From the NCBI GenBank assembly GCA_000091205.1, contig AP006502.2: DNA of 64,000 nt. One strand, 5' to 3'. The notes beneath the pieces are model-generated. The model was given only the letters and a program-made list of their open reading frames with translations, did no database searches and was not told the DNA's origin. A program made the position numbers and the translations under genes. The stretch is from Cyanidioschyzon merolae (taxonomy: Eukaryota). Positions 26,971 through 55,294 of this stretch are shown piece by piece; positions within the stretch are counted from its first letter, which is position 1; each line of letters starts with the position of its first letter.

Positions 26971-26990
26971 ATGGATAGTCGCTCGACAAA

Positions 26991-29621: not shown

Positions 29622-30899
29622 GGTACTACAAGCAGCAATTGCGCCTTTGGGAGGATGCACCATCGACACATCGATTTTCTGTAATCAAAAACATGTGCCT
29701 GTCGGCAAGCGACATCCTCTGGTACGCCATGAGCCTTCCAAGGGTGCAGCGCCTGCACCACGGCGCACAGCATCGCTGAAGGTACTCGAAGCAGCTGGAT
29801 AGCTGGGGCCTGGGAATGGGTGTGCGTGGGGAAAGATCACGGCGGACGATGCGCTGGGGGATACCCAGGGGAAAAAATAGATTGGATCTGTACGCATGCC
29901 AGGCTAAAATGGAACGCGTCCCCCAGGCGAACTCAGGTGTCTGCTCTAAGGAAAGGGTCTCTTTCCATGATCATGATCAGCACCAGCGTTTGCAGGCTTT
30001 TCCGCTACTGTCCGTTTTTCCTCTCTCGTTCTCTCTTATATCCGGCATTGCACAGGTCGGACGCTCGTATCCCTTGCGAGGTAATCCCAACAGTCGACGG
30101 ACGTGGACAGTGGCTTTAGAGACTGGATTTCGGAGTTTCCGACGGTTGTCGACGCATTTCACGTACAAACCGAAGTTGCGATCTACGCTTTGCGAACCAT
30201 TTCGATTTCCTTCGTATGCAACCTCTGTGCATGCTGCGCAGCGGTAACGCTTGACGCTGATCAGGTATACCCATAGGTCCATCATTTCTCTCGTGGCGCG
30301 GAGGCCGCGTTGCGGCGCATGAAGGCTTGCACCCTCGCTCAATACACACGTTCTTGTTGGGTACTGAGAGCTTCCCCATATGCTTCCAAAGATTTCCGCG
30401 CCTACTTTCGTTCTTTAACGATCACGCGCTTCTTCGGCACGGTGCCTGCGGCGCGCTATCCGCTGCGCTCGCAAGTGCAGGCCCTTCTATTCGATGCTAT
30501 ATTCGTGGAGCGCCAAATTACTCACAGTGACATAAGTAACGGAAGAAGAACCCAACTTAGAAAGCTTTCCGATCCGGTTACTGTCCCTTCTTGGAGAACG
30601 GTGACAATCTCGCCACTGAGAGCGATCGCCGTTTTGACTCAAGTCCGAGTTGAAGTCCCTCTGCCATGCACACAGAAGAGACGGGAGCCTTTGCAAGTAT
30701 ATCCCGTCGGGGGGACCATGCTGCTGTGGACTTTTGTTTCGTTGATGTCCACAAAAAGAGAAGGACTGGCAGTTCGAACGTTGTTCTTTATTTGGTGCGA
30801 CGAGTCCATTGAAATTTGGGCAAGAGCTGACGAACAAGTCATCAAGGGACGAGGTCAAGTATTTTATTCCGTGAATCCGGCGGTTCGAAATGCTGCACC

Positions 30900-33400
30900 C
30901 ACGAGTTGCCATGAACCAAAATGATCGAGAACTTGAAGCGTATGTGATTTGACGAAGCTACACATAGGGATTGGACACGAGCGGAGGCTTTTAAATGTGA
31001 ATCGCATGATAAGATCGGCTATTAAATGAACCCTTTTTCGATAAAGTTGCGAATCATCTTGATTCTAGTGACGCTACGAAATCCGAGTAGACAGCATCGG
31101 AGGAGCCGCTTCGAAAGCGCGACCGAGAATCCGAGAAATTCCAATGAATCCATTAGCACCCTGTGTTCACTATCCTCTTTTTATACACATGTGATCAGAG
31201 AAACAAAAACGCTTTCTTCGAACGTCCAGGATAAATGAATACCTACTCACAGACGCTTCCCAGTCTTTTCCGACCGGCAGCCTGCTATCGGCTTCAGCTT
31301 CTCCTTGTACACTTTGAGCCTGAAAGGTTGCCCCATGAAGTTGGATCACCTCAGGTCCGCAGATCTCGTCTTCTGCACCGCATATCGTCTGGCGTGGATG
31401 GCGGCGTTGAAGTCTCGGTTCACGACCTCCATGCGTTTATTGCAGCTGGTTGGACTCACTATCGCGAGGCTCACTCGAACTTTTGCATTCTGTACCACTA
31501 CAGTCCCGCCATTGGCCTGTCGAGCAAACACCTTTTTTTTTGTCAGTGTCCCTCTTCTTCGTCACTTGCTCTTCTTCGTTCGATGGCCGGCGAGCATATT
31601 GTTTTCGTCCATTTCGGGCGCCCGGCGATGACGGGCCTGCAGGATCCTCGACTGCCATGTGCATAACTGTCCCTTGGATGTTTTGTTTCTTTAAAATGAA
31701 CGCACTTGTTTATGCCCCTTTGTGGTGACCTTCACGGACGGAGAAGGGCCTGCGGAGGAACGACGCATGATATCCCGATGTGTCGCCGTGTGCTGAACGC
31801 TCTAGCGATTCACCTAGAGGATCGATCAATACGTTTCATAATAGACAACACGCCTTCCATGGGCTTCAACCACGGAGCGTACGGAGGAACGAAAAGCAGC
31901 TCTACCCCGATAGAGTGCGCAAAAGCTCGGACGCAATGGGAACGCTGAAATGCCACGTTTTCCAACAGAGGGACGTCACCAGACCCACAGGTGAAAGGTC
32001 TTCGATCATTCAACAAAGTGGTTCATGCTGGCCTGTGAGCCTGCTCTACGAGCGAAACCGAAGGCTCCACTGGAATCCAGTGCACAGCTAGAACACATGA
32101 TGATGTCCTGGTTCTCTTCGAGTTCGATCATATATACAACGGGCCCCATCACCTCGAGTACCCGTGTACGCTCAGTCGATTTCATCCGATGGACGTGTCA
32201 TCTGCGGAGGGAAAACAAAGCAACATAACTCCGTTTCATACCGACCGCTGAGTTCCAGGACCGCTATTGTTGTGATTTCGATGGTAAATGGCCGTGCGTG
32301 AACCAGGACTTTTTCTGCGCTTGTATTCCAACGTTTTCAGGACTATACGAACAAACAGTGAAGAAACAGAGACGGTCATGGTGGCTACTAGCGTCGCTCT
32401 CTGCTTGCTGTGCGATGATCAATCGGTCGTTTACGATCATTGGCAGCAAACAGTCTTTGAGAATGCACATATCTGGCACGGAGCGCTTGTTGTTGTTTCT
32501 TTCAGTATTCCTCAACTATCTGGGTACATTGGTATGACCAACCTGAAGGAGTAATGCAGTCCTCCATGTGCACTTCCGTAAAGCGCATTTCCTATGGGCA
32601 ACTCGGCTCCGATCTACACTGTACATTGGAGTGTGATATCGATCGTCTGCTACGCAGCGTGGCAGGTGGCGGCACGAAACTGTTTTGAACGACTGTAACG
32701 GGAGGTGAATGGTGGAACCTGCAGTTATGGTGCAGAATGATGAATGACCTCACGTACGCGGATAACGTTGGCGCCCAATCGAAGATGTTTCAGTTCGTGA
32801 CTGCGAACCATCGATCAACGTACAGAAACGATCCGATTGCTTCATCCTATGGATGATGGAAAAAGAAGAGAAAATTACTATTGTATTGGCGAAAGTGTGC
32901 CGAAAGAACAGAAACAAACCACTAACTAGGAACTCGATAACAGTAGGTTTCCCTCTGTACGATAAACCTTAGAAAAGGGGGACGCTTTCCGTACGATCGA
33001 AAGTTTCCCTTGTAGACGGAAGAGCCCACAAGCCGGACGAGTCTCCGGGGCTCGTACTTCATGCCCCTCCCCCAGTGGCGGATGTTGTGACGAGACGTTA
33101 GCGACTCGTTCACATTGCGAATGCACTCTGGAACTCTGGGCAGTTGGACGGTGTCTGTGCGTCGCCCTGGTCCGGGTGGACTCCTGGAATATCGCTTCGC
33201 GCTGCTGCAGGCAATAGGTCTATATGCACAGCTTGCGGGGTTTCAGAATAATTATGCACTCTGACCCCGCTTCAGGTGAAGCACTCCTCGACCCGATGCC
33301 CTCAGTGGTATGACGAAGCCGTTCTGACTCCGTGATGCATCTGCTCCAGCGTTTTAGGCGCTACTGCCGGTGCATTGATGCAAGAACTCGGCACACGTTA
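30900..33400. mobile_element. AT-rich block with no long ORFs that harbours the mariner-like remnant. It is probably a decayed DNA-transposon insertion, and its boundaries are uncertain.
   Basis: GC content drops against the flanking genes. It contains a (T)10 run and the transposase fragments. A weak inverted match (gctcttc..cgt.c near 31568 and 33023) may mark degenerate TIRs. Confidence 0.35.
31810..32515 (-). pseudogene. Degenerate mariner-like (Tc1/mariner superfamily) transposase remnant.
   Basis: Minus-strand fragments in three frames align with the Mos1 transposase. CFFTVCSYSPENVGIQAQKKSWFTHGHLPS matches IVTGDEKWIHYDNPKRKKSWVKPGQPS, with the first DDE Asp lost. LVEQAHRPA matches LLHDNARPH. 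LLFVPPYAPWLKPME matches LPHPPYSPDLAPSD. Stops and frameshifts separate the fragments. Confidence 0.55.
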
Positions 33401-33449
33401 GAACGTACAAAACAACCAGCACATCCGAAAGAAAGTACAAGCAATGGAA

Positions 33450-33555
33450 CTTGGAGGTAGGGTGTAGCATCATGATGGAAGCTTTTTCGATTGCGATTAT
33501 CCATCCCGCAATCTGGGATCCATAGTCAATGGAATGTTTTGGCATCGGAACAAAA
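33450..33555 (+). repeat. Conserved non-coding element, copy 2, overlapping the annotated 5' end of the KMO ORF.
   Basis: It aligns with 26991-27095 over ~105 bp. The core is ccatcccgcaatctgggatccatagtcaatggaatgttttggcatcgg. Confidence 0.7.
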
Positions 33556-39660: not shown

Positions 39661-42270
39661 TTAAGACGGAGGACTTCCCGTAGACACCTCTTCCTCGCCT
39701 TTCCTGAGCTCGATCTCTCTCTCGAGAACTTTCTCAGCGCGTTGGAAAAGAAGCTGCCAGAAACGAACCGACTGGCGTTCGAGAAGCTTGCCCATGATCA
39801 TTCGCGAGTCTTGAAACAGTTCTCGTACGACTAGTCGCAGCAGATTCGGATTCCTCCGTAGCGTATTCAAATCAAAGCGCTGCGATGTCGTCTCGAGCTC
39901 ACGGGGTAGTGGCGGCAGCAGCTGCTCGAGCAGCAGCTCCTGGATCGCCCTGAGTCGCGCTGAATTGGGTTCCCCGCTGCTCGGAACGATGCCAAACGTT
40001 GCACGCGAGAGCGTCTGCAGAAACGCCAACTGTAAGTCATCCACGATATCAACGAATTCATTCAAGAGGCCTTCGCGCAGAAAGAATCCCTCATTTGAGA
40101 GCAGGTATTCTAGGGCGAGGTTCCAGGCAGCGTCGGCGGACATGGGCTCGAACGGATCCACCGCAAAACCAGCAACGCCCCTGAAGCGCAACATATCCGA
40201 GCTTGACGCAGCGCTGCTTGCATCGGGGAATACGGAACCGTTTTCGCCGCTTGATGCCCCATCTCCTCCAAGAGCCAGACTGCTCTGACGGATCATCGTG
40301 AAGAGTCGATTCCAGCGAATCCGGCGAGTGGTGGTATCGAGCAGCACCTGCTGGACTGCTTCCCGCAGCGCCGGCGTCGGAGCGAAGAGTAACCGCCGCG
40401 CAACATATGGGTACGCAGCATCAACAATCCTGAAACCAGGGTCGTACTTGAGCGCAAGCCCCTCGAGCGCCGTCAATGAACGCATCACCAGCGCCAGGCT
40501 CGCCGGTATCCGAATGGGATACGCGAACGCGACCCGGCCCAGGTTCGAAGTCAACGTTGCAAAGTTCAGGTCCGTGAGGGTCGCGCGACGTCCACCTCGT
40601 TCTGCATCCGCATTGCTCGCTCGCTTGGATGCCTCGAAGGCTTCCTCCAGCGCTCGGCTGACGGGCAGCGGGTCCACATCGGGTGGAAGGAAATCCAACG
40701 CCACCAAATCACGACTCAGCTCGGCGTACTCCTTGTTAATGAGATGCGTGATCGCCATGATCAAGTGATATCGTCGGTCAGCATCAAGTTCCGCCATACA
40801 ACCAAAGTCCAGGTACACGAGTCTGCCTTCTGGTAGGGAACAGAGAAAATTTCCTGGGTGTGGATCTGCATGAAAAAACCCGTCATCCAATAGCTGTTGA
40901 AGTGAGCTCGCCACTCCGATTCGAATGAGACGCAGAGCATCCTGTTTTTCCCATTGTGACGGTTTGAGGCCGTTAATCCATTCCAGCGCCAACACATACG
41001 GCGTTGTGTAGCGCCAAAGGATGTGGGGCACGAGGATCTTGTCTCGAAGCGTCGCGTCGTTTGCTGCCAAGGACGGCGCTCGTGCGTACAACGATCGGAA
41101 GCGTTCCGCGTTCATAGCTTCGTGGACGTAATCCATCTCCTCGAAAAGTCGCTCCCCGAACTCATCCACGATTGCTGGCAAATCGGAGCGCAGTCGGAAA
41201 AACTTTCTCGCCTTATCTGCAAGCCAGCGTAGGATCAACAGATCCAGCGGCACGTCTAAATGAAGGCGTGGTCGCTGCACTTTGACAGCAACCTCCATCC
41301 CGGAATCTGAAAGCTGCGCCCGATAGACCTGCCCGAGCGACGCTGATGCAACCGGCTCAGGCATGCGACTCGCATCGAATGCACCGTTGCCAAATAACTG
41401 GTGCATGGCCTCAGCGCCAAGTTCGGCCCTGAGCAAGGCCCACGCCTCTTCTTTGGGAAACGGACCTACGTCGTCCTGCAATTTCTGGAGCTCAACCATA
41501 AAAGTCGGACCAACAATATCCGGCCGACTGCTGAGCGTCTGCCCCAGTTTGATTGCAGTGGCGCCAAAGTCGACGGCGAGCGCTCGTAGCTCGGCGGCAG
41601 AGCTTGCATCCATGCGGATGCCTTTCTCGTTCGCCAGCGCCTGGCGAAGCTCCGGGTCCCGTAGCCGCCAGCGATACCGTACAAACCAGAGCAACAGCGG
41701 GAACGCGACAGCCGCGGCCCGAGCGATGACCAAGTCGAATCGCCAACGATAGAAGCGAGCAAACGCCTGCAGATCGTAGTGAAGGAACTCGGCGCGACCT
41801 CGACGAGTGATCCAAGAGCGCAGGCGTCGCCAGTCCTGGCGTACCAGCGCCCATCCGCGAAGCCCCGCCTCGACCTCCTCGGTGTACCGATATCGGCGCT
41901 GGATTTGCTGAACATCCATGGGTATCGCATTCGAGGTTCCGGGTGCCGAATGCGCAGAAACGATGACGCTCTCCGTCTCCGACAGACTCGCTTTGGTGAC
42001 GCGCCAAAACTGGTCAAGGTGAGCGTGCTTGCGGCGCTGTCGCCATAGGCCTCGCCGTCCCGTACAATCCCAACGGCCACAAAAGTAAACTTCTCGAGCG
42101 AAAGGCTGCGCACGCCAAAATACCGGTTGAGAGAGCATGAACGCCGTTAGAGGCACCTGGGGATGCACGGGCTGCGCTTGCAAAGTAGCGCGTGCTCCAG
42201 CTCTCACCCGGTTCACGGGTTCTGGGTTGCAACACCCCTTGTCACGACCTGAGAACTGCATACCATGCAA
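39661..42270 (-). CDS. ABC1/UbiB-family atypical protein kinase (ADCK / plastid ABC1K-like).
   Basis: ABC1 motifs are present: ..FGATAIKLGQTLSSRPDIVGP.., ..PVASASLGQVYRAQL..GMEVAVKVQRP.., ..FFHADPHPGNFL.., ..LVYLDFGCM... The N-terminal start is uncertain. Confidence 0.85.
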   Translation of the reverse strand: MHGMQFSGRDKGCCNPEPVNRVRAGARATLQAQPVHPQVPLTAFMLSQPVFWRAQPFAREVYFCGRWDCTGRRGLWRQRRKHAHLDQFWRVTKASLSETESVIVSAHSAPGTSNAIPMDVQQIQRRYRYTEEVEAGLRGWALVRQDWRRLRSWITRRGRAEFLHYDLQAFARFYRWRFDLVIARAAAVAFPLLLWFVRYRWRLRDPELRQALANEKGIRMDASSAAELRALAVDFGATAIKLGQTLSSRPDIVGPTFMVELQKLQDDVGPFPKEEAWALLRAELGAEAMHQLFGNGAFDASRMPEPVASASLGQVYRAQLSDSGMEVAVKVQRPRLHLDVPLDLLILRWLADKARKFFRLRSDLPAIVDEFGERLFEEMDYVHEAMNAERFRSLYARAPSLAANDATLRDKILVPHILWRYTTPYVLALEWINGLKPSQWEKQDALRLIRIGVASSLQQLLDDGFFHADPHPGNFLCSLPEGRLVYLDFGCMAELDADRRYHLIMAITHLINKEYAELSRDLVALDFLPPDVDPLPVSRALEEAFEASKRASNADAERGGRRATLTDLNFATLTSNLGRVAFAYPIRIPASLALVMRSLTALEGLALKYDPGFRIVDAAYPYVARRLLFAPTPALREAVQQVLLDTTTRRIRWNRLFTMIRQSSLALGGDGASSGENGSVFPDASSAASSSDMLRFRGVAGFAVDPFEPMSADAAWNLALEYLLSNEGFFLREGLLNEFVDIVDDLQLAFLQTLSRATFGIVPSSGEPNSARLRAIQELLLEQLLPPLPRELETTSQRFDLNTLRRNPNLLRLVVRELFQDSRMIMGKLLERQSVRFWQLLFQRAEKVLEREIELRKGEEEVSTGSPPS

Positions 42271-42550
42271 TGCCCAGGTATCTTGCCTCGACTGTCAAAC
42301 AAACGCGTGACTGCCCACGTGGTGATTCGTCAAAAGCCGCACGCAGTTATCCAGTCGGGACGTTCACAGCCAAGAACGTTTTCGTAACGGTGATGAAGCA
42401 GGCGCGAATCCGTGACGCCACCGCGCACAAGTCGTCGCAGCAGCTGTGCATCGATCGGTGAACGCTGCGCTGCGGCCGCTGCTGTCGAGTAGGCGCTGCT
42501 GGGGGGCTGCAGTGATGTCCGATGAACATGGAAAAATGAATTTTGCGTTC

Positions 42551-43328
42551 TGTCCCTGTCATGCGAATGTTATTTCCGAGGTATTCTAGGTGTACAGCAT
42601 CGACATTGTCTGTGTACCAAGTGGAGCACACGGATTCGTGTGTAGGTCCAGGATTCGCGGTGGTCTTTTTCTCGGAATACGCCTTCGACGCTTTGCCGTC
42701 GGCGTTCGCGACGTCATCGGAATCGAGATGATTCGCGACGCTCTCCGAGAACACTTCAAGAAAGTAACCCGGATCATTATGCAGGGCATGCGTACGGGCC
42801 CCGGCGATTCTCCGTTGCGTACATGGAGCATGCCCAAACCGCGCATGCTCCAAGATACCGATCTCTGTTTCAGGACAGCTTGTGGGCGCAGCAGTGCTTG
42901 CCGCAGGACTGACGCGGAATAAATCGGGGTATCGTCCCGTGACGCCTTTTTCGCAAGCACATACCAAGCGTTCACTGAAAATCACTTGTGAACTGTTCGT
43001 AGACTCCGTTCGAAGCACACATCCTCGATTCCGTGTGGGCATCCACGACGCGCCATTTGACACCAGCGTGATGCCTCGTGCCTTGAACAGTACTCACCCT
43101 GACAACGGGCGAAATCGGGACTGGAAAGCCACCATCACCATCCTTTGACTGCCGAGCACGAAGCCGGCGAGAAAAGAAAAACCGGCGTGCTACGAGCTGG
43201 AGATAGTCGGGCGGAAACGGCATCGGTGTCGGAAGAGCGCGCAACGGCTTGTGTTGATGCGCATTGGCAGAGACTCGAACGCAAGCGCATACGCCTATGT
43301 TGCTACGCCTGTTCCATTTTATACTGAC
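42551..43328 (+). repeat. 778-bp dispersed repeat, copy A. It is ~99% identical to 53384..54161 and in direct orientation.
   Basis: Base-by-base comparison shows only about seven mismatches. The termini are 5'-TGTC...GAC(A/G)-3'. It contains the 5' ~170 codons of a minus-strand ORF (42347..43063) and about 265 bp upstream of it. Confidence 0.9.
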
Positions 43329-45664
43329 GTGAATGTAACGACAATCGGGAATGCTTTGTATCGAATGGATGATCTTCTCATGAAATAGGACAGATGAAGA
43401 TTCAGTTCGCGTCTCGCGATGGACGTCCTGCGAGCGGAGACGCTCGAAGCCCAGGGCGCTCTGCTGAGTCACCGCGTTTGCCTGGCAGCAGCCTGTGCAC
43501 TTGGCAGCGCGTCGCAATGCTAGCACGCAGCGTCCTCGAGCAGTCGTCTACAGCGACATGGCAGCGCCTTTTGCGTCTATATAGTCGCTGCGACGGCGAA
43601 TGGCACGCAACAGCAAGCATCTTCGACAGCCTTGGGACTCGAAGTGTCACTGGATTCTTTAAGCTCGCATGCGCTAGCGGACCACGGGACTGGAGCTGAC
43701 GCAACATCGCGCTCTCTGTGGATGAGACAAGGCCCAAGCTCCGATGACCGTCGGCGTTCGCGTGCCTCCCTGACTTGGGTGTGGTGCTTCTATCCAGTAT
43801 CATAGACCATGTACACCGAGAATACAGGTGAGTCCATCGAGTCTCGCCTCCATTGGGGAATGCAGCACCAGGATCCAGGGAATGTAGAAGCCTCCATAGA
43901 CAGCAGGGGTGCTTTCCCTGGTTAAAGACAGCGCTCGTCCATCCGGAAAACAGATGCGGTTGGACGCATCGAACCTTTACCAGGAAAGCAACCGCATGTA
44001 ACCCAGCCAGAGCGACGGCAACACAAGCGGAGATCTCCAAGCATACCGCACTATGTTCCATCCTCCGTAGGGTGGCACGCGAAGAAGAAACCTCTCGTGC
44101 ATGTGCGTTTCAAGGCTTTCTAATGGACGACGAGGCATCACCATTGGCATCATTGGATCAAGAAGAATCGTCCTCGCTTGATGGAAGGCTTTTGCAGGCG
44201 CCGCAGCCACGCGTTTTTCTGCGCACTTCCTGCCCGGCGCTCTTTCCGTATCTAGCCGCAGAACAAGAAGCGCGAACTGTGTGGAGACCGTTTCATGCAG
44301 TGTCTGCGGAACTGACGTCTTTTATACGCCTGCAGGACTTGTGCAGGCACGTTTTCTGGTATCATCTTCGACGAACGCCAGCGTCTGCACTAGAAGTCGT
44401 CTCTGGTTGTACCAGGGGCTGCTACCCCGTTTCGTGGTGTTTCCGCTCGGAATAGGTCTTTGTGCGGGATTCGAGCGCAGCACCGATTGCAGGCCTATCG
44501 CGCTACTGGTGTCATGTTTTGCGATTGTTTATCCCGAGAGCCCAGCCCATGTTTGCAAGCGGTCCAGAACATGGACTATGTTCGCTGCTATACCCCCGGT
44601 TCAAAGCTACATTCGTGACGGAATGCGGTCCCAGCGTGTCGACGAGGAGCTCCCCAGCACGACGCCCGAAGATCGCTGTGAATCGTGCCGTACAGGAGCT
44701 TCTGCGGATACACTCAGAATCGGATGCACCGCGATACCTGTTCGGGAGCTGCTTTCACATGGAAACGGATGTGCGGAGGAGGCGCAGAACGCTGTCCAGT
44801 GTCAACCTGATAGACATCGCTCCGCACTGAAATCGTCCGCAATAACTGACCGTCCCCCGAACGAGGTTACACCAGTTGAGGATGACGAGGAGGATTCGAA
44901 CGAGGCTGACGCTGTGGTCATCGGAGCGACACTCAAGCATTGCGCCAACATGCGCAGAGACGAACAAAGTTGGGCTGTTTGCTTCTCCAAAAAACCTGCG
45001 AAAGCAGCAGAGGAGCGACCAGTCGCCGATAAGAACAGGTTCAAGTATGCTCCTTTCGCGGGGACGCTGATTCCTCCATTATAGGCCCTGGGAAACGAAT
45101 TCCGATGACGATCGTTTGATGCTGCAGAGGCCACGACTCTGCAAGTCTCGCTTCAGGATACGCGTGCGCGCTTTCCAGAAACTTGCCACATTTGCATCGC
45201 TATTCCTCGTTGCTTCGGCTGGAATCGGGTTGCACATTCACGCGCACGCTGTCTATTCCAAGCGTGACCCACGAACGTGGGGTTTTCCCAATCCAGCACC
45301 AGAGGCTGCTAGTGCTACAATAGCCTCTGTCCTCGGAAATGCGCCAAGTTCTATGCTTCGATCGTACTTGTGCCATTGCCTTTTGGCTATAACGCTGCAT
45401 GAAAAGACCTCCGTCGCTTGGTACGGCGTCAGCGCACCAAACGCGCTGCCGCCTCATCTCGGGCGTTTTCTTCAACGCCCTACAACTGCGATACTACACG
45501 GAGTCTCGCATGCCGTGCGGCACTGCTGACTGGCATGGTACTCCCTGTACGAATTTGCGCCACGTTCACTGTATCGTCCGTGCTCCATGGCTCGCTTTTA
45601 ATCGCACCCGAAGCGAGTCACTTTGGATTAGCTCGTTGAGATAGGCAGATTCGCTTCGCAGAGA

Positions 45665-46591
45665 TCATGCTAATGGTTCAATCCCGCCATTGCGTTGCCA
45701 AGTATCCACAATCTCAACGGTTAGTAAAACTAGCCGCGTTGACTGGTTCAGAATCGCAGACTCTAAAGGAGACCTCTGGCTGGTTGAAGTCCCGATCGAG
45801 GTACCGGGCGCCTGGGGCATCGACTTGAGCTGCAGCTGCTGCTCCAGACGTATTCGAGCGAGATCATAGCCGGCTCGTGCTGCATCTACAATGGACTGCA
45901 CGAAGCGATCAAACTGGTCAGGAACTCGGAACTCCTCCGTGATCGCTCGATTCCGACTGGACTGTTCAGACGGGGCCTCCGGCGGCATGCGATCGCGAGG
46001 AAAGTTCACATAGCGAAGCACCTTGAAGACCAGCGTTAGCCATATCGTGCGCAGCTCTACTTCATCAGCTTCTAGTGGACGAGGGAGTTCGCCACTAGCG
46101 CTTCGGTTTCCAGAACGAAGTGACTCGGCACCGACGCGGCGGAGCTCGATTTCTAGCGCATCCAGCGAGTAACCAAGGCGGTAGGCCCGAACAGTGGAGG
46201 CAATAAACGACCGTAGTGCAGCAACATACGGCACGCCACTTTGCGGTAAGCATGCGTTGAGAAACGCCTCGTGGATGGCTCCCGCCACCCCGTTGACGTC
46301 ATCGTTCTCAGCGGCGGAGGATAACACCAGCCGATAGACTACGCCGCGAGGTGACGCAGATTGGTGCAGTGCTTTCCGGTGGCCTCTCCAGTGTAGCTCG
46401 GCGCTACCGAAGCTTGGCACGAAAGCCCCTGGTGCCAACGGGCAACCCATACCTCCAGATAAAGGCATCAGCTGAGTGCGTAGCGTGCGTTGCGGCAAAG
46501 CGGCAACCCGTCGGCCTCCAGCGTGCAAGTGCGTTCCTGCCGCTGCAAATGAAGCCGTTCGTCGTAGCGTGCTCATTGCAAAGCAGAGCAT
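45665..46591 (-). CDS. Hypothetical protein (308 aa) with an S/T/R-rich N-terminus that may be an organelle presequence.
   Basis: The ORF is long with balanced composition and has no recognisable motif. Confidence 0.35.
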   Translation of the reverse strand: MLCFAMSTLRRTASFAAAGTHLHAGGRRVAALPQRTLRTQLMPLSGGMGCPLAPGAFVPSFGSAELHWRGHRKALHQSASPRGVVYRLVLSSAAENDDVNGVAGAIHEAFLNACLPQSGVPYVAALRSFIASTVRAYRLGYSLDALEIELRRVGAESLRSGNRSASGELPRPLEADEVELRTIWLTLVFKVLRYVNFPRDRMPPEAPSEQSSRNRAITEEFRVPDQFDRFVQSIVDAARAGYDLARIRLEQQLQLKSMPQAPGTSIGTSTSQRSPLESAILNQSTRLVLLTVEIVDTWQRNGGIEPLA

Positions 46592-47841
46592 TGGCGGTAC
46601 ACCCTTTCACGTTTCCGTTATCGCTCTTAGCAGGGACAGCAACTCCACGCAGAAGCTGCGAAGCAAGCAAGTACCCGCTGTAGCTCAAGGCGGACGCCAG
46701 CGCTCGACGCGTGCCTCGGGATCTTCGCACGCGCGCCTGCGCTGCCGTTGGGCAGCCGCAGGTCGCTTATGATCGATGGTTTTTTTCGATGACAAAACGT
46801 TTCCATGGACTGCGGAAAACAGATTGCGGGTAGGTAATGGCAATCGAAGAAGCGTCCATCATGGTGCTACGCCCTATCTAAAAGTTCTATTACTTATAAT
46901 TCCCTTCGGATGAAATGGTCGTTTCGTGCGTTCTCTCTTTCGCCGAGTGCCTACCGCGAGCACCCGCCGTCGCGCGTATACCGCTGGTGCGCATGCCCCA
47001 CCGAGACAGAACCGCCTTTCTATGCTACTGAGGGCGTCCGCTCGAAGGATGATTCACCTGACACAGAATCAGGGCTCATTATCATTCTGGGAGCCTGCAA
47101 GCTGCGAGGCAGATATGCCGCTTGGGGCAGAGCGAAGCGATACACTAGGAGTCTACCGCGATCAGGACGACGCCCAGACACAGCATCCCGCTCCTAGTCT
47201 CCGAATATACTGCGCGTTGACGAGTTGCTCAGGTCTCGCTAAAGCACCAGCTACTGCAGAGTCGCATGAAGCACGAGTCGGGGAGACTCGTCCGGCTCGC
47301 GGGACCACCTGCCAATAAGATAAACTTTCGATAATATGGAAACCATTTCCCCTTTTAACGGTTATCGTTGAGGGCTGCGCAATTTTCATCATGTTGCTCG
47401 TTAGTGGTTCGTCTATGTTCTTTTGTCTGCAGCGCAGTCCATACGCGCACACCCGTATCTTGTAGGCATCAGACAAGACGCGTATCAGGCGGTTGAAAGG
47501 AAACGCGATCCTGACCATGAGCTTGTAGCTCTATGGTAAAAGACGTATTAGGGTTGAAGACGTAGCAAAGTATAGTGTTTTATCCCAATTGTGCTCCAAC
47601 ACTCAAGATAGTGTATTCATGTGATTTTTCACGGTTTATAGCAGAAGCGTTCGAAGTACGTTCTTTTTCTAAAAATAAAAATAAAGTTGTGGAAATAGAA
47701 GTGGAAGATCCTGGAGAGCTGGTATCCCCGGTTGCCGGAAACAGACGAATAACATTGCGGAGCAAAGAGGAATCGGGGAAGACGAAGAAGCAAAAAGGGG
47801 AGGCCCGACGCCGAAAGCTGCAAGAAAGACGATAATGCGAC

Positions 47842-49551
47842 GTGATGGTGGTGAAAGCCTGTCTTCTTAAACATATCAAGGATCCTTACAGGGAAAAGTT
47901 GCGAGACGCTATCAGAAACCGTATCGACTCGTACTCCAAGAGCATCGTCAAGGCGTCGTCAGGTCTGATGCATTTGGCGAGGGGGATGTATCGCGACGTG
48001 AAGCACATGGAAACAGTCGAGATTCCGGACGAGTTTTTCGATAAGACCTTTAGTCGTCAGCTGATGTTTGGCACAGGGGAAGCTCCGAGGGAAAATGAGC
48101 GAATGCATGCCCTCCACGAGAAACATCCCTTTTACAGGTTCGAGGGTAATCGAAACAAGGGGGACTGGGGTATTTACGACAATGGGGCGATGAAGTACCT
48201 CACGAATCTGAAAAACCATTTGACAGTGAACCTCGAACGTTTCATGATACGCGCCGTGTTTGCGCTCCACCCGGGCATCTCTCGCAATGGAAAATGGGCG
48301 ATTATCAGTGGCATCATGAAAGATCGCAAGCATGAAGACGAGATCGAATTTGTCGGAGAAAAGGCGTCAAACGAGAGCACGAGTGAGGATTCCGTCATCC
48401 GCGCGGTTATACAAGAGCATCGTGCAGTCTCGGGGCTGACGAACCCAGCAGAAAATGTATTAGATTTGAAAAAAGATAAGGAAAGATACTATCGCCTCGT
48501 CCTGCGCTATTTCGTGTTTTTGGACCGTGAACTCGAATGCAAGGCAGAGATGAAGCTGAATGGGACAAAAAATGAAGATTCGGGGAGACGGAAGGCTGCG
48601 CTTCTGGGTAAGCGCTTCAACGTCGTTCCGTTATGCAACATCAAGTCACATTTTGACACCATCGACTCCAGAATCGCTCACGGCAGCATAAAGGAGATCA
48701 GTCCGGAGTTCGATGTAAGGAGGACAGAGTTCACTGGTGGAAACCGGGAGACGTACTGGAAGAACATCTTCAATTTCAAACGGCTCAAAGTCAGCAAACA
48801 AAAGGTATTCACTGGGATGATCGAAAACAATGGGGTAGCCATGTGTGTCCACTATCGGCGGTCGAAGGTGGATCGCCCAATCGTGCCTTTCGCTTCGCCC
48901 TCTGCGAAGCATGAAGAAAGCAAAGAGGCGGATCCTGTGATGCAGGAGGTGCAGGATAACGACTCTGTCGTTGGCGCGGACCCGGGGAACACGAACATCG
49001 TAACCATCGCAGTACCCAAGCACGGGGTATATGGTAACGACGGCAATTTACGTCAGAAAGACATGCGTCTTTTGAGAATCTCGAGAGCGAGATGCTACCG
49101 AGAATCCGGTATAATGAATGTGAGGAAGAAAATTTCTGCATGGGATGCAGGAATGAAGGATCACCTGGAAGCCACGAGCGCGGTGACGAGCCGAGAAGCA
49201 GACTTTAAAGCTTTTCGGAAATTCGTGGAAGTTCGTGTTGCGCATTGGGATGCCCTGTGGGAGGAGTATACCGAGCCCAGATGGGCTCGTTTGCGTATGA
49301 ATCTATACTGTGGAAAGCAGCGGGCGTTCGCGAATTTTTTCAATGAGTTGAGCGCCTTGAAGGAGGATGAAAATCAGAGGCTAGTAGTAGCATACGGAGC
49401 AGGGCGATGGACGACCCAAAAAGGGTGTACACCAGCTCCAACGACGAGGGTGTACAAGGAGTGCGCACGGCGTTTCGTTACGAACCCGGTAGATGAGTTT
49501 CGAACATCGTATACACACCATGAACTGTGGTGTACACTTCAGAGGGTCTAG
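47842..49551 (+). CDS. Fanzor-like protein (eukaryotic TnpB/OMEGA-family RuvC nuclease homologue). This is the main ORF body, and it is interrupted at the C-terminus.
   Basis: A ~380-aa N-terminal region precedes the RuvC-I-like motif [16 protein letters not shown], whose Asp codon is at 48979-48981. Near the end, [15 protein letters not shown] resembles the TnpB TS-x-C zinc-finger lead-in. The ORF ends at an in-frame TAG (49549-49551). An in-frame TAA at 47833 separates it from an upstream 86-codon ORF with a K/R-rich NLS-like tail. Confidence 0.7.
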
Positions 49552-49763
49552 ATGGAAAAGTGTCCGGGGAGCCCCGAGGATATAGCAAAGTACGGACCGC
49601 TGACAGACGAGCAAATGGAAAGGATAACGAAAGTGCGCAGGCTACTTGCATTAGTGAGTAAACTCCTAACGGCACGAAACAGGTGGAGTTTGTGAACCGA
49701 GACTTGAACGCCGCTATCAATGTAAGGAGATGTGCGGTACTGGAGAATAGACCTCCAGACTAA
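49552..49763 (+). other. Displaced C-terminal segment of the Fanzor/TnpB-like gene carrying the RuvC-III motif. It reads as either a pseudogene tail or an exon after short introns.
   Basis: In the frame of positions divisible by 3, codons 49683..49763 read VEFVNRDLNAAINVRRCAVLENRPPD*, with RDLNAAINV being the canonical TnpB/Fanzor RuvC-III motif. It is separated from the main ORF by the TAG. A 29-nt GTGAGT..CTAAC..AG element (49654-49682) would splice frame 1 into this frame in phase. Confidence 0.6.
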
Positions 49764-50020
49764 ACAAGAGGGAACTTTGATGGACAATTCTGAAAGTTTT
49801 ACTATATGAGAAAAAGTTGGAAGCAGTTGTGGGTGGCCGGTCGAACAAGTCTGGCAGGCGTCTGCACATCAGTTGGAGACGTTTCGTTTAGGGTGTGTCG
49901 TTCGCCACTACTGTACACTGCCGGCAGCATCGTTCGACTTTAGATAGGCGTTTGGTGTTGGCTGCGTCTTAGACCTATAACGAGGCAGACCGATACGAAG
50001 CTCGGTGAAAGGAGCCGTTT

Positions 50021-51781
50021 ATGGGTCCCGCCGCTGCTCAGCCGCCACAGCTGGCGGCGCACGGACTCGACGAGAGCGGCTCGTTCCGGGACTCGGGCAC
50101 CGGCGTCTTTGAAGACAGCTACACTGCACAAGGCGGTTTCGCAGAGCTTAAAGCTCAGCCGCTGTCGGAAGCGTCGATGCCTCGACGTAAACATCAGACT
50201 GAAAGAGGAAAACTTGGCCGAGTAGACGGATTGTTCGAGGAGGCGCCCCCCGGTGACTCGGTTGTTATAGATACCGTCACTGCAGAAAACGGTTCCAGCT
50301 CGGCACGTAGGAGGTTTGAGTGGCGGTTGGCACTCCGTAAGCTCGGTCCGGCTTTTCTAATCTCAATCGGGTACATGGATCCGGGAAACTGGGCTACGGA
50401 TATCGAGGGCGGCTCACGTTTCGGCTATCGGCTGCTGTGGGTGCTGGTTGTCTCCAACGTCATGGCGTGGCTGCTACAAACGCTTGCTTCACGCCTGGGT
50501 ATCGTGACAGGTCGCCATTTGGCACAGCTGTGTCGCGAGGCGTATCCGCGCATCATCGCGATGACGCTGTTCGCGCTCGCCGAAACAGCGATCATCGCTA
50601 CGGACCTGGCGGAAGTCATTGGAACGGCCGTTGGCTTGAATTTGGTCTTGGGTATCCCGCTCCTGCTCGGTATCCTGGTGACAACGCTCGACACGCTCCT
50701 GCTTCTGATGGCACAGCGTGCTGGTGGGCTACGTCGGATCGAACAAATTGTCCTATCTTTGTTATTCGTCATCACGATATGCTTCGCATTGGAGCTGGTA
50801 TTGAGCAAACCCAGTTTCATCCAAATGATTGGAGGGCTGGTACCGCGTATCGACGGGCAAAGCCTTCTGGTTGCTCTAGGTATGTTGGGCGCGACGGTGA
50901 TGCCGCACAATTTCTACCTCCACTCCGCCATTGTGATTCGTGATGCGACTGTGAGGCGCCCTGCCGACTCGTGCGTGTCCACGTCGGCGACACGCACGGC
51001 AGACGGGACAGCGCATAACGGACACGACTTGGCAGGCTGCACTGATGATTCGGATCGCGGGCGCGAACTCGAGTGCGTCTATTCAGCGATCGACTGTGCG
51101 GTTGCGCTGAATGCGGCGTTCTTTATTAATGCGGCGATTCTTATCACAGCGGCATCCTCTTTTTGGGCGAATCACGTGCAAGTGGCGACCTTGCAGGAAG
51201 CACATGCCCTTTTAGAGCGCGTGCTACCCATTCGTCTCTGGGGTCGCGTGGAAGTTGCGCCGCTCGTCTTTGGGATCGCTTTGATCGCAGCAGGCCAGTC
51301 AAGTACCATCACCGGAACACTCGCCGGCCAGTATGTCATGGAGGGCTTTCTAGGACTTTCTCTGCAGATGTGGCAACAGCGATTACTGACGCGGCTATGC
51401 GCGGTCGTGCCGAGCGTGCTGGTTATCATCCTACTTGGGCCCGAGAGCACCTACAGGCTCTTAATTCTTTCCCAGGTAGTTCTATCGCTTCAGCTGCCAT
51501 TCGCGATTGTGCCCATGATTCGATTCACTGGGAGCAAGGCACTCATGGGTGAGCGGTTTGCCTCGGGAATGTGGACTCGTATCTGTGCCTGGTGCGCTGC
51601 TGCGTTCATCATCGTACTGAACCTGTGGATGGCTGGCTCGATGCTCTTCGATGCCTTCCGGGTGCAGTCTGGTCGAACTGCTGGCGCAGTCGTTGGCGGT
51701 GTTCTCGCCGTTCCGCTCACCATCTATCTTCTCGGTGTACTGGTCTGGCTGTGTATGTACAGAGGGTTTAGAAATGAATGA
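50021..51781 (+). CDS. NRAMP: NRAMP-family divalent metal transporter (MntH/DMT1-like).
   Basis: The NRAMP motifs are IGYMDPGNWATDIEGG and MPHNFYLHSA. The ORF has about 11-12 TM helices and stops at TGA. Confidence 0.9.
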   Translation: MGPAAAQPPQLAAHGLDESGSFRDSGTGVFEDSYTAQGGFAELKAQPLSEASMPRRKHQTERGKLGRVDGLFEEAPPGDSVVIDTVTAENGSSSARRRFEWRLALRKLGPAFLISIGYMDPGNWATDIEGGSRFGYRLLWVLVVSNVMAWLLQTLASRLGIVTGRHLAQLCREAYPRIIAMTLFALAETAIIATDLAEVIGTAVGLNLVLGIPLLLGILVTTLDTLLLLMAQRAGGLRRIEQIVLSLLFVITICFALELVLSKPSFIQMIGGLVPRIDGQSLLVALGMLGATVMPHNFYLHSAIVIRDATVRRPADSCVSTSATRTADGTAHNGHDLAGCTDDSDRGRELECVYSAIDCAVALNAAFFINAAILITAASSFWANHVQVATLQEAHALLERVLPIRLWGRVEVAPLVFGIALIAAGQSSTITGTLAGQYVMEGFLGLSLQMWQQRLLTRLCAVVPSVLVIILLGPESTYRLLILSQVVLSLQLPFAIVPMIRFTGSKALMGERFASGMWTRICAWCAAAFIIVLNLWMAGSMLFDAFRVQSGRTAGAVVGGVLAVPLTIYLLGVLVWLCMYRGFRNE

Positions 51782-52145
51782 TCAGCGTAAAATTTGGCGG
51801 TCGTCTCACCGGCAGCGCTATGCGGTGCACGCCGCCGCGATTGATGCCGTCGAGGCTGCCGTCCGCGGCGACGAAGTACCAGCCTGGATCAGACGAACCT
51901 GCGACCTCGTCAGCGCTGCGTTCGCGATGGAACAGGATCCGATCCGTATGGATCAGCACACACTCTAAACGAAGACGAAACCTATACCGTGGGGCGTCTT
52001 TCCGAATTTGGCGTCCTTCTTCGCGGCAATGCCCACGGTCCACCGACGGCAGGGGCAGCGACAGTCCAACGCCAAACACGTAACGACGCTTTTGTGACCC
52101 GAAAAGCACAAAAACGAAGCTGAGCATCTGGCGCCGCAGTGTCCA

Positions 52146-52922
52146 CTAGGCGGACGGCAATGTCGGGCGATTCGCGAGCAGCCACTCGACAACACAATGC
52201 ACGCCATACCCGGTGAGCGCGTCAACGTGCTGGAGCGCGACAGGTCCCACGGCGCCCTTCTTTGTCACGCCTTCGATGAGTCGCGTGAGCGCTTCTTCCC
52301 AATGAGGAGCGGCATCCTCAAATTGGCCTCCATGGAGCCTGTTGATCACCAGGATAAGCGGCCGCTTTGGCGACGGCTGCGAATGCTTGGACCCAGCGTC
52401 GGCGATACCGTGACGACTGCATCCCGCTTCGGCGACGGACGCAGCGGCAGAGGGGGCAAGGTGCTCGCAGGTCTCCTGCAGTGCCGCGATGCACTCTTCT
52501 ATCCGAGTTGCATCAGATCCGTCGATGACCCATACCACGGCATCAGCCTGTTGCAGATACCTACCCCAAAGAAAACGGAAAGAGGCGTCCCCGCCGAGGT
52601 CCAAGAGCACCCAAGTAACCTCCGGACCGTTGGCCGCACTCGTGACCGAGAAGCGGTCGAGTCCCACGGTCGGAATATAGCGCTCTCGTTGGCCATCAAC
52701 TGAACCATTGGAGTCTGGGTGCACGGGTTCGGCAACCCAGCGCTGCGCAACGGCGGCGACGGGGTGCGCGTTCGAGCTCGGTACCTCACCCGCTAGCCTC
52801 TTGCGAATCGCGCGTACTAGCGTCGACTTTCCCGAACCCTTCAGTCCTAAGAAGACAACTCGATAGGGTGGATGCCTCTCTACCCAAAATGTGTTAGCAA
52901 GACTCGAAAGCAGTCCAAACAT
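52146..52922 (-). CDS. Atypical ARF/SAR/SR-beta-like small GTPase.
   Basis: An N-terminal amphipathic helix is present. G1 is GLKGSGKST and G3 is LLDLGGD. G4 NKxD is replaced by a divergent sequence, and there is a ~35-aa insertion after G1. Confidence 0.55.
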   Translation of the reverse strand: MFGLLSSLANTFWVERHPPYRVVFLGLKGSGKSTLVRAIRKRLAGEVPSSNAHPVAAVAQRWVAEPVHPDSNGSVDGQRERYIPTVGLDRFSVTSAANGPEVTWVLLDLGGDASFRFLWGRYLQQADAVVWVIDGSDATRIEECIAALQETCEHLAPSAAASVAEAGCSRHGIADAGSKHSQPSPKRPLILVINRLHGGQFEDAAPHWEEALTRLIEGVTKKGAVGPVALQHVDALTGYGVHCVVEWLLANRPTLPSA

Positions 52923-53383
52923 GCGGCGTTCGTTGCACGTCCCTTCGGCGCGAGTCTGGTGCTCCCTGGCCGCTCACGAACGTCCTCTGTGACCAGCAAA
53001 CGGGGTCGCGCTGCCTCAACCAGAGCGTCTTGCCCGTAGAAGGCATGGACTTTGCTCAAACTCGTACAAGTGCCTAGCGGTGGTACTCAGCACGTGCGAC
53101 CAGGCAAGCAGCGGCAGCAGCAGCAGAAGCGAAAACATCGATCATTCGGTCTGTCGAGTCGCGCACCCGCAAACGCCACCTACCTCCGCGGCACCCGAGC
53201 TCGGCAGAAGTTCTCTTGCTGCATCGACGGCACGGCGCTGTCGAAGCGTTCAAGGTAAGTATGCTGTTGGAGATGAAAGTCAGGTCTATGAGGTCAGTGT
53301 TTAGCACTGTGCCTCATTTCGTGCCCGGAGACCTGACGTCAGCATTCGTGATAGACTGAACTAGCGCACTGGACTACCCGCTT

Positions 53384-54161
53384 TGTCCCTGTCATGCGAA
53401 TGTTATTTCCGAGGTATTCTAGGTGTACAGCATCGAAATTGTCTGTGTACCAAGTGGAGCACACGGATTCATGTGTAGGTCCAGGATTCGCGGTGGTCTT
53501 TTTCTCGGAATACGCCTTCGACGCTTTGCCGTCGGCGTTCGCGACGTCATCGGAATCGAGATGATTCGCGACGCTCTCCGAGAACACTTCAAGAAAGTAA
53601 CCCGTATCATTATGCAGGGCATGCGTACGGGCCCCGGCGATTCTCCGTTGCGTACATGGAGCATGCCCAAACCGCGCATGCTCCAAGATACCGATCTCTG
53701 TTTCAGGACAGCTTGTGGGCGCAGCAGTGCTTGCCGCAGGACTGACGCGGAATAAATCGGGGTATCGTCCCGTGACGCCTTTTTCGCAAGCACATACCAA
53801 GCGTTCACTGAAAATCACTTGTGAACTGTTCGTAGACTCCGTTCGAAGCACACATCCTCGATTCCGTGTGGGCATCCACGACGCGCCATTTGACACCAGC
53901 GTGATGCCTCGTGCCTTGAACAGTACTCACCCTGACAACGGGCGAAATCGGGACTGGAAAGCCACCATCACCATCTTTTGACTGCCGAGCACGAAGCCGG
54001 CGAGAAAAGAAAAACCGGCGTGCTACGAGCTGGAGATAGTCGGGCGGAAACGGCATCGGTGTCGGAAGAGCGCGCAACGGCTTGTGTTGATGCGCATTGG
54101 CAGAGACTCGAACGCTAGCGCATACGCCTATGTTGCTACGCCTGTTCCATTTTATACTGAC
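53384..54161 (+). repeat. 778-bp dispersed repeat, copy B, the partner of 42551..43328.
   Basis: Same as copy A. Its ORF copy is 53339..53896 on the minus strand, which diverges once outside the repeat. Confidence 0.9.
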
Positions 54162-54751: not shown

Positions 54752-55294
54752 TCACTCAAACTCGAGCTCCTCCTCCTCCTCGCTGCCGCTACCCGACACG
54801 GCTTCCATGGCGGCTTTGCGAGTTTCCGACTGGATGTACAAGATAATCAGGAACGCAACAGGGATCAGAGTGCCCAGGAACACCGCCAAGTACGCACCGA
54901 ACTGCACGGTCATACCGCTCTCCTCTGCGGCGTATCCCATCGAAGGAAGTGCCCACATAGCCGCCGCGAGCGACACCGCTGACGCAACTGGCGAACCTGA
55001 CTGCGCCTCCGGGGCACGTGTCGCACCAGCAACGCGCTGCTGCTGCTGCTGCTGCTTCAGCAAAACGGCGGCGCGCGTGCAGCCAACAGCTCGGTGAACG
55101 CGCATCGTCGAGCGGCTCGGTAGGGGTGCTCGCACCCTTTGCTTCAGCACAAGCCGCGACTTTGATGAATATCCAACCAAGTTTGTCACAAACAACGTGT
55201 TCATCGCTGCAACTTCTGTAGTGAGGCTTGACGAAGCGCGGCTTGCGATAGAGACAACCGCAGCACGCTCAGACAGCGATGGCGATCGCGGCAC
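54752..55294 (-). CDS. Small single-pass membrane protein with an S/R-rich presequence, a Q6 run and an acidic C-terminal tail. It may be organelle-targeted.
   Basis: The ORF is 180 aa. A TM helix is at GAYLAVFLGTLIPVAFLIILYI, and the tail is SGSGSEEEEELEFE. Confidence 0.4.
   Translation of the reverse strand: MPRSPSLSERAAVVSIASRASSSLTTEVAAMNTLFVTNLVGYSSKSRLVLKQRVRAPLPSRSTMRVHRAVGCTRAAVLLKQQQQQQRVAGATRAPEAQSGSPVASAVSLAAAMWALPSMGYAAEESGMTVQFGAYLAVFLGTLIPVAFLIILYIQSETRKAAMEAVSGSGSEEEEELEFE

Follow-up and report, generated by a model that had tools for sequence, protein, structure and literature searches.

Near-identical 778-bp direct repeats around a block of conserved genes on chromosome 20 of Cyanidioschyzon merolae

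The red alga Cyanidioschyzon merolae 10D serves as a model organism, prized for a genome that is minimal and fully finished. The window analysed here, a stretch of 64,000 nucleotides, contains two copies of a repeat (R1 and R2, or R where the copies need not be told apart), which lie in two intergenic regions of chromosome 20, together with two older relatives of the repeat (A1 and A2), a Fanzor1 element and the following genes.

15105..16404, minus strand: A1, old member of the R family, approximately 1.3 kb, in the orientation opposite to R, ~57% identity to R
29895..31190, minus strand: A2, old member of the R family, approximately 1.3 kb, in the opposite orientation, ~56% identity to R and A1
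39661..42270, minus strand: ABC1/UbiB atypical kinase gene, left flank of R1 (PF03109, E = 1e-58)
42551..43328, plus strand: R1, non-coding repeat copy of 778 bp (self-BLASTN and flank alignment)
43329..53383, no strand: interval between the R copies, 10,055 bp (gene order from relatives)
45665..46591, minus strand: gene for a 308-aa protein, conserved in Cyanidiophyceae (only a weak DUF7876 match in the Pfam scan)
46787..49950, plus strand: CMe-1A Fanzor1 element, full-length copy, 84% identity to the 3,169-bp consensus (nhmmer, BLASTN)
50021..51781, plus strand: NRAMP manganese/iron transporter gene (PF01566, E = 4e-115)
52146..52922, minus strand: Arf-like small GTPase gene (PF00025)
53384..54161, plus strand: R2, repeat copy of 778 bp with five mismatches to R1 (self-BLASTN and flank alignment)
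54752..55294, minus strand: PsbM-like nuclear gene, right flank of R2 (PF05151, 23.3 bits, below the cut-off of 24)

The protein encoded by the NRAMP gene is 100% identical to BAM83173.1 of C. merolae 10D, the exact product of the Arf-like GTPase gene is encoded in two metagenome contigs (L001 and L002), and the 308-aa gene has syntenic orthologues in L010-L013 (66-76% DNA identity) and an exact copy in L014. The order ABC1, 308-aa gene (313/327 aa in relatives), NRAMP, Arf-like GTPase, PsbM and YchF is kept in L011-L013; on the two sides of the interval, the ABC1/UbiB kinase gene is syntenic in relatives and the position of the PsbM-like gene is conserved in L010-L012. In Cyanidium caldarium (L010) the order is largely kept, with ABC1 inverted and placed beyond a CTP-transferase gene. 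From this gene order, the interval is ancestral syntenic host DNA that contains one decayed CMe-1A insertion, and not cargo. Since the interior is ancestral host DNA, the R pair does not delimit a mobile element.

Self-BLASTN of the window aligns R1 and R2 over 778 bp at 99.36% identity, with five mismatches (at 42604, 42638, 42772, 43143 and 43283), no gaps and E = 0, and the two copies are in direct orientation with a start-to-start distance of 10,833 bp. This agrees with the preliminary description, which had reported two near-identical 778-bp direct repeats bracketing about 10 kb; its value of ~99% identity stands, while its "about seven" differences are reduced to five. Beyond both edges the identity between R1 and R2 drops at once to background, that is, the ends are abrupt, and flank-only nhmmer searches (run on a very small database, with E values of up to 100 accepted) found no homology between the flanks of R1 and R2, nor between these and the flanks of A1 and A2. 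A few bases of nhmmer overrun past the edges of R correspond to alignment overhang. The termini are TGTC...CTGAC, and the next base is A after R2 and G after R1, which means that the TGTC...GAC(A) termini of the earlier account are right for R2 and wrong for R1; these ends amount to only a 4-nt match. R1 is located 281 bp upstream of the ABC1-kinase ORF (minus strand). R2 is 462 bp upstream of the ORF for the Arf-like GTPase, also on the minus strand, and its distance downstream of the PsbM-like ORF is 590 bp; both R-bearing intergenic regions are longer than their counterparts in related species.

All four junctions between repeat and flank are present, at ~99% identity, in independent metagenome contigs (L001-L003, L007, L008, L009, L014, L017 and L018), and it follows from this recurrence that the duplication is not an assembly error in this sequence. 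R1 is joined to its left flank in L009 and L015-L019 and to its right flank in L014 and L017; for R2, the left junction occurs in L001-L003, L007 and L008 and the right one in L009, L015 and L016.

As previously described, each copy bears the start of one minus-strand ORF (238 aa and 185 aa), which diverges beyond the repeat. This ORF is spurious and R is non-coding. A real gene within R was rejected on three grounds: the ORF has no Pfam match, its homologues are limited to the same locus in wild strains, and the strain variants within it comprise four synonymous and ten non-synonymous changes, including a stop. The tblastx scores of R are equal across all frames. Searches against Rfam returned nothing in the window at gathering thresholds and nothing in R in permissive mode, A1 gave one snoRNA match of chance level that lies outside the element, and the search for tRNA genes was negative. 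On its reverse strand R begins with GTCAGT and ends with ...CAG, but A1 lacks the GT, and a 5'-UTR intron or introner was therefore discarded.

With R as the query, nhmmer matches A1 in two segments, 16394-15922 and 15335-15111 (E = 1e-20 and 2e-11), and A2 in two others, 31166-30710 and 30133-29900 (E = 1.5e-27 and 1.5e-7). A chunked self-search shows that A1 and A2 are homologous along their full length. A1 has approximately 580 extra nt between positions 527 and 558 of R, ends with ...CTGAG and sits 209 bp upstream of a glycosyltransferase gene at 16613; A2 adjoins a CMe-1A remnant, and the end at which it would match R over approximately the initial 40-65 nt is lacking or has diverged. The homology shared by A1, A2 and R stops at the right end of R, and that between A1 and R stops at its left end. 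These alignments show that R belongs to an old family of dispersed low-copy repeats with defined ends, of which it is a member with an internal deletion, two old and diverged copies being present elsewhere in the window.

The preliminary description had supposed that the 778-bp form might be multi-copy, and for this young form that did not hold. A scan of the JGI metagenomes with the R-terminal 22-mer recovered three contigs, each of them on one or other of the two known left flanks, and the protein cluster built on the spurious ORF, with members drawn from JGI, Logan and ENA, shows only two left flanks or tail types among the 15 members listed of 17. The right-terminal 23-mer of R is absent from the GTDB genome collection and from IMG/VR, the exact sequences of two plus-strand ORFs within R gave no matches, a search of the window and of the 19 fetched loci with the R family profile added no members, and the ORF of A2 has only its own orthologue in the protein collection. 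Across the sampled populations, young R is thus confined to two loci, and the family formed by R, A1 and A2 is small, non-coding, apparently undescribed and distinct from the known CMe-1A elements. The case that had been set against the first interpretation, a plain two-copy local duplication, is nearly what is found, but the termini of the two copies coincide with those of the family.

C. merolae carries out efficient homologous recombination. From this capacity and from the length (778 bp), identity (99.4%) and direct orientation of R1 and R2, the two copies would be expected to behave as a low-copy repeat pair. The pair has the make-up of a substrate for non-allelic homologous recombination (NAHR): it is direct, 778 bp long, 99.36% identical (above 95%), located on one chromosome and separated by 10,833 bp from start to start. 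In C. merolae, URA markers are routinely recycled through direct-repeat pop-out by homologous recombination (PMC8504449). Like the repeats used for that purpose, and like low-copy NAHR repeats in general, the R pair consists of direct, near-identical copies around unique DNA, with one hybrid copy as the predicted recombination product; it differs from the URA pop-out in being natural, intergenic and derived from an old repeat family, and its deletion in vivo is a putative one, seen at the level of contigs.

The structure predicted for such a product is found in three hot-spring metagenome contigs, L009 (18 kb), L015 (73 kb, from Yellowstone) and L016 (88 kb), each of which links the ABC1 flank to the PsbM flank through a single R. 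Each of them corresponds to the window from about 63.9 kb down to 54162, followed by one R and then by 42550 downward, with ~99% identity (BLASTN), and lacks exactly 10,833 bp, that is, the interval plus one repeat copy. L015 and L016 differ by 0.7% and thus represent two haplotypes. In L015, R resembles R1 at the left end and R2 on the right; the phase of SNPs within R in metagenome contigs may mix both paralogues, which weakens the case for gene conversion. The earlier proposal that the direct repeats are a substrate for deletion of the 10 kb finds in these contigs the exact one-repeat product, and they may represent a real presence/absence polymorphism.

Taken together, these observations are probably best explained by R being a short, non-coding member of an old family, present as two young copies 10.8 kb apart that act as a low-copy NAHR repeat pair. 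According to this explanation, R would have reached both sites, each a few hundred bp upstream of a gene on the minus strand, as a discrete element, and recombination or gene conversion between R1 and R2 would keep the copies alike. The near-identity had been attributed to a recent shared origin or to homogenisation, and the data support that view. Recombination between R1 and R2 would loop out 10.8 kb and leave one hybrid copy between ABC1 and PsbM, and the one-repeat contigs would be real alleles.

The strongest competing proposal, to which somewhat less than even weight is given, is that the one-repeat contigs are assembly artefacts, that all C. merolae carry both copies and that the loop formed by R, the interior and R was collapsed by assemblers or contig mergers. 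All three are short-read metagenome contigs, in which loop-skipping during assembly is possible, and two R copies do form a loop in the assembly graph that could be passed over when reads are assembled or contigs merged. Of the contigs from these populations, most end within or at R (L001-L003, L007, L008, L014, L018 and L019). The JGI24721 sample series, which is the source of L009, also yields L008, with the junction between the Arf-like gene and R, and both one-repeat haplotypes have a near-identical counterpart: L017, close to L016, shows the junction from R1 to the interior, and L019, close to L015, breaks inside R. A real deletion would, moreover, cost three genes conserved across Cyanidiophyceae. 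On the other hand, the same exact join occurs in three separate assemblies and in long contigs (18, 73 and 88 kb), none of the fetched contigs runs from the Arf-like gene through R2 to PsbM, and standard graph assemblers break at unresolved repeats, as they did in the other contigs here, instead of skipping 10 kb. If the contigs were artefacts, the repeats would be only a potential recombination substrate and not an observed one.

With a natural pair of 778-bp direct repeats around three conserved genes, the chromosome has an inherent site of instability, and laboratory lines could lose the NRAMP transporter, the Arf-like GTPase and the conserved 308-aa gene unnoticed. Provided that the one-repeat contigs are real, a metal transporter is subject to presence/absence polymorphism in wild populations, which is relevant to adaptation to metal-rich acid springs.

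The notion that R moved as a discrete element has its own alternative, namely that R is not mobile and that one copy is a resident member of the old family, the other having arisen from a single non-transpositional event (templated break repair or ectopic gene conversion) in which 778 bp were copied from 10.8 kb away. The existence of only two R loci in all sampled populations, the proximity of the copies on one chromosome and the lack of a target-site duplication or terminal inverted repeat are in line with this proposal. It is nevertheless unlikely, since the copied tract would need to start and stop exactly at the family termini, the junctions have no microhomology and both intergenic regions are longer than in relatives.

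Mobility of R as a discrete element was compared with known element classes. No target-site duplication flanks either copy or the pair as a whole (flanks GCGTTC|R1|GTGAAT and CCGCTT|R2|ATTTGC), and an inverted-repeat scan of R and its flanks found no terminal pair longer than 4 nt; R thus lacks both the terminal inverted repeats (about 10 bp or more) and the target-site duplication of a DNA transposon or MITE. The features of a Helitron (5'-TC and 3'-CTRR ends, a subterminal hairpin at the 3' end, insertion between A and T) are absent: the ends of R are TGTC...CTGAC or GTCAG...GGACA, the flanking bases are C/G and T/A, and the nearest hairpin-like palindrome ends approximately 36 nt from the end of R. 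The R family resembles SINE-like non-LTR retroelements in being non-coding and in that all four members share the end at position 778, one of them (A2, without 40-65 nt at the opposite end) as if 5' truncated; it differs from them in lacking a poly-A or microsatellite tail, a target-site duplication and polymerase III promoter boxes, there is no partner LINE within the window, and four copies are too few to judge. What suggests a discrete mobile element is the coincidence of termini among the four visible family members.

A more ambitious reading combines both questions: the R pair would make the 10.8-kb block (NRAMP, Arf-like GTPase and 308-aa gene) recurrently deletable in wild C. merolae, the block having been lost independently on at least two haplotypes and the loss having reached high frequency in some Yellowstone springs, possibly because loss of a metal importer helps in acidic, metal-rich water, and R would be an undescribed type of mobile element that inserts upstream of genes without terminal inverted repeats or target-site duplications. 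This reading is regarded as distinctly improbable. The R pair is a real feature of an ordinary structural kind, and it does not point to a new kind of biological system.

Integration of the 10.8 kb as a circle, by a single crossover into a resident R (Campbell-type), with the one-repeat allele as the ancestral state, would formally be expected to give a repeat-cargo-repeat structure beside a one-repeat allele. This is very hard to credit, because it is contradicted by the synteny of the outgroups, in which the stretch from ABC1, or the neighbour of ABC1, to PsbM already includes the 308-aa gene, NRAMP and the Arf-like gene; in gene content it is thus the two-repeat order that is ancestral, and the one-repeat form is the derived one.

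Least credible of all is that R1 and R2 bound an 11.6-kb LTR retrotransposon as its LTRs, or that each is a solo LTR: the copies are direct and nearly identical, fall within the size range and have a TG...(C)A outline with a TGTC/GACA inverted match of 4 nt at R2, but R1 and its next base end with GACG, neither the single copies nor the pair are flanked by a 4-6-bp target-site duplication, there is no TGG-initiated primer-binding site (after the 5' copy or next to either copy, on both strands) and no polypurine tract (before the 3' copy or elsewhere beside them), and the ORFs of the interior, which belong to host genes in conserved order or to the CMe-1A copy, include no gag, reverse transcriptase or integrase. 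LTR retrotransposons are, furthermore, reported absent from C. merolae (PMC1955436).

CMe-1A and TE-N2_CMe are unclassified Fanzor1-bearing repeats of C. merolae (Bao and Jurka, 2013). Like R, they are dispersed in the same genome without terminal inverted repeats or recognisable target-site duplications, whereas the R family is low-copy and ORF-less and they, together with a 3.2-kb interspersed repeat, reach a reported ~70-250 copies. The CMe-1A consensus (Bao and Jurka, 2013, supplementary file 2) has no similarity to R, A1 or A2 by nhmmer or BLASTN, and a relationship of R with the Fanzor element was rejected. The "Fanzor island" placed between the repeats by the preliminary description is such an element, a single, ordinary, decayed copy of CMe-1A as published: the ORF at 47842-49551 is cut short by a premature stop (49549-49551), and a frameshift follows later. 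The same consensus also matches five remnants (nhmmer, BLASTN).

Self-BLASTN of the window identifies as its strongest internal repeat by far a pair of 778-bp direct copies, R1 (42551-43328) and R2 (53384-54161), which align without gaps and with five mismatches (42604, 42638, 42772, 43143 and 43283; E = 0). Identity reaches background level at both edges, and a flank-only nhmmer search (E up to 100) found no homology between the R1 and R2 flanks. The near-identical direct repeat claimed in the preliminary description is thus genuine, sharp-edged and well above chance. The termini, given there as TGTC...GAC(A), are TGTC...CTGAC in both copies, and the final A holds only for R2, the next base after R1 being G. 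As had been described, the same minus-strand ORF does begin inside each copy, and the frame reaches 238 aa in R1 and 185 aa in R2. At the left junction of R1 (42549-42555), strain 10D reads GCGTTC/TGTCC and wild strains GCGTCC/TGTCT (the slash marks the repeat edge), two linked substitutions on either side of that edge; one metagenome contig (L009) has the flank variant and lacks the repeat variant.

The pair lies among the following features.

39661-42270, minus: ABC1 kinase, followed by R1
About 2.3 kb, right of R1: stretch without recognisable genes
45665-46591, minus: conserved 308-aa gene
46787-49950: Fanzor element (CMe-1A), between the 308-aa gene and NRAMP
50021-51781, plus: NRAMP
52146-52922, minus: Arf-like GTPase, followed by R2
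54752-55294, minus: PsbM-like gene, right of R2
56504-57829, minus: YchF, beyond the PsbM-like gene

Over 586 aa, the NRAMP ORF matches BAM83173.1/XP_005539209.1 of C. merolae 10D with 100% identity, and contigs approximately 99% identical to the window are present in hot-spring metagenomes (JGI, Logan, ENA), one of which (sample Ga0078972) comes from a Yellowstone hot spring. Neither tRNA genes nor Rfam matches were found in the window.

The gene order between the repeats is older than C. merolae. Contigs L011-L013, from a related species with an NRAMP 68% identical, carry CTP-transferase, ABC1, a 313-aa gene, NRAMP, Arf-like and PsbM, while the Cyanidium caldarium contig (L010) carries a 327-aa gene, NRAMP, Arf-like, PsbM, YchF and a protein kinase, with ABC1 just upstream; the interval (43329-53383) is therefore ancestral host DNA plus a CMe-1A insertion. 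The 10-kb interval is not the cargo of an element, nor do R1 and R2 bound a mobile one. The ancestral host interior rules out both a Campbell-type integration of a circle at R and an LTR element with the R copies as LTRs; the latter fails also on target-site duplication, primer-binding site, polypurine tract and gag-pol, and LTR retrotransposons are reported absent from the C. merolae genome (PMC1955436). In C. merolae, both intergenic regions that hold R (42271-45664 and 52923-54751) exceed their counterparts in L011-L013 by about 0.9-1.8 kb, which is consistent with insertions at both R sites, but this DNA is unalignable between the species.

The preliminary description also placed a Fanzor island in the bracketed segment. 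A Fanzor element is indeed present, as a single decayed copy of a published repeat: 46787-49950 is one full-length copy of the Fanzor1 element CMe-1A, with 84% identity to its 3,169-bp consensus (Bao & Jurka, 2013), for which approximately 150 genome copies were reported (PMC3627910). CMe-1A is presumably the interspersed repeat of about 3.2 kb counted at 253 copies by Nozaki et al. (2007; PMC1955436). The decay follows from a stop at 49549-49551 in place of the glutamate of the consensus, with a frameshift further on; the RuvC-III motif NRDLNAAIN (49683-49763) is in a different frame from the CMe-1A ORF. Metagenome contigs break at 49.73-49.99 kb, the 3' end of this copy. CMe-1A has no similarity to R, and there is no link between the R pair and the Fanzor copy inside the interval.

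Five further CMe-1A-derived pieces lie in the window (8653-9204; 26146-26801 with inverted 26870-27090; 31226-31707 and 32902-33546, minus; 59465-60427), among them one internal-deletion derivative and one Fanzor ORF fragment. The piece at 26146-26801 is a TE-N2_CMe-like 5' module, behind which part of it recurs in inverted orientation, and between its direct and inverted segments a 76-bp unit stands in two tandem copies, 98.7% identical (26818-26969); the minus-strand pieces form a 2.4-kb deletion derivative adjoining A2, an old relative of R. These 64 kb are repeat-rich, though the genome has been described as nearly transposon-free.

R is non-coding, because tblastx scores are similar across all frames on both strands, the minus-strand ORF has no Pfam match, its relatives among 5.8 billion proteins are only the same locus in wild strains, and the strain variants within it are mostly non-synonymous (4 synonymous and 10 non-synonymous, including one nonsense; random change would give 24% synonymous). 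With R as query, nhmmer matched two diverged relatives in the window, A1 (15105-16404, minus; matches at 16394-15922 and 15335-15111) and A2 (29895-31190, minus; 31166-30710 and 30133-29900), with E from 1e-7 to 1e-27. Both are opposite to R in orientation, about 1.3 kb long and mutually homologous over their whole length; identity is approximately 56% whether they are compared with R or with one another, and they hold some 580 nt that R lacks between its positions 527 and 558. Homology among the three stops at R's right end, give or take a few bases, and that of A1 with R stops at R's left end; with the 580-nt gap, this suggests that R is a member with an internal deletion of a repeat family, here called family A, that is discrete, old and low in copy number. 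A1 and A2 are non-coding as well and form with R a family that has apparently not been described before.

R has no terminal inverted repeats, target-site duplication or tail, and A1 and A2 have neither terminal inverted repeats nor target-site duplications. Compared with retroelements, the end at R position 778 is common to all four copies and A2 lacks the opposite end, which hints at retroelement-like 5' truncation, four copies being few for judging. In A1, R1 and R2, the same element end points to the next gene's start codon, which lies 210-460 bp off on the same strand; this arrangement may be no more than survival bias of insertions in a compact genome.

The suggestion that the 778-bp unit might be a multi-copy element was not borne out. 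In the JGI metagenome contig scan, the left-terminal 22-mer of R occurs in three contigs, none of which has a left flank other than the two already known, and the 15 listed members of the 17-member R-ORF cluster (90% identity; JGI, Logan, ENA) have two tail types only, ABC1-side or Arf-side. The right-terminal 23-mer is absent from GTDB genomes and IMG/VR, and the A2 ORF has no relatives except its own orthologue. As far as these data reach, the young form of R exists at two loci only.

The proposal that the interval is a substrate for deletion by homologous recombination is matched by metagenome contigs, three of which have exactly the predicted one-repeat structure.

L009: JGI24721J44947, 18,279 nt
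L015: IMG 3300005573, 73,237 nt
L016: IMG 3300005861, 87,987 nt

All three run from the PsbM/YchF side (from about 63.9 kb in L015 and L016, about 55.4 kb in L009) down to 54162, through one R, and on from 42550 downward on the ABC1 side, with approximately 99% identity to the window and 10,833 bp missing. L015 and L016 differ by 0.7% and therefore represent two haplotypes. The R of L015 has the R1-linked base at position 5 and, at 620-686, variants known otherwise from an R2 copy (L007), a mixed pattern such as a crossover would produce.

A serious caveat is that the one-repeat contigs could be assemblies that skipped a loop, and not true alleles. A two-repeat genome gives a looped assembly graph, and older overlap-merging pipelines can skip the loop. 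The two-repeat form also occurs in the wild: R1 is crossed by L017, whose flanks are of 10D type, its right junction is present in L014, and the left junction of R2 is present in L001-L003, L007 and L008. In favour of loop skipping, the contig with the Arf-R junction (L008) shares its sample series with L009, and near-identical haplotype counterparts carry the two-repeat junction (L017, 99.88% identical to L016) or a break in R (L019, 99.86% identical to L015). L019, a 57-kb MEGAHIT contig, begins within R beside a variable site, and most contigs of two-repeat type end in or at R, as an unresolved repeat predicts. On the side of a true deletion, direct-repeat recombination is routinely used for URA marker removal in C. 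merolae (PMC8504449), so the mechanism is plausible. We lean slightly towards the deletion allele being real. The role of the R pair is most likely passive, that of a recombination substrate able to delete the 308-aa gene, NRAMP and the Arf-like GTPase, and as such it is an instance of a feature type already well known.

A set of 14 R sequences shows no fixed difference between the R1 and R2 loci, and of its 24 variable sites 11 vary at both; two of the five R1/R2 differences in 10D (repeat positions 222 and 733) occur in the 10D R1 copy alone. This variation would fit gene conversion between the copies and is suggestive only, as contigs may mix R paralogues.

To the right of R2, the PsbM-like nuclear ORF has a long extension at the N-terminus and its PsbM-like helix at the C-terminus (Pfam 23.3 bits, cut-off 24), and its position is kept in related Cyanidiophyceae. 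Just upstream of it lies a 40-nt inverted repeat (55305-55344/55419-55458; 83% complementary, 74-nt spacer), within which L009 begins, at 55428.
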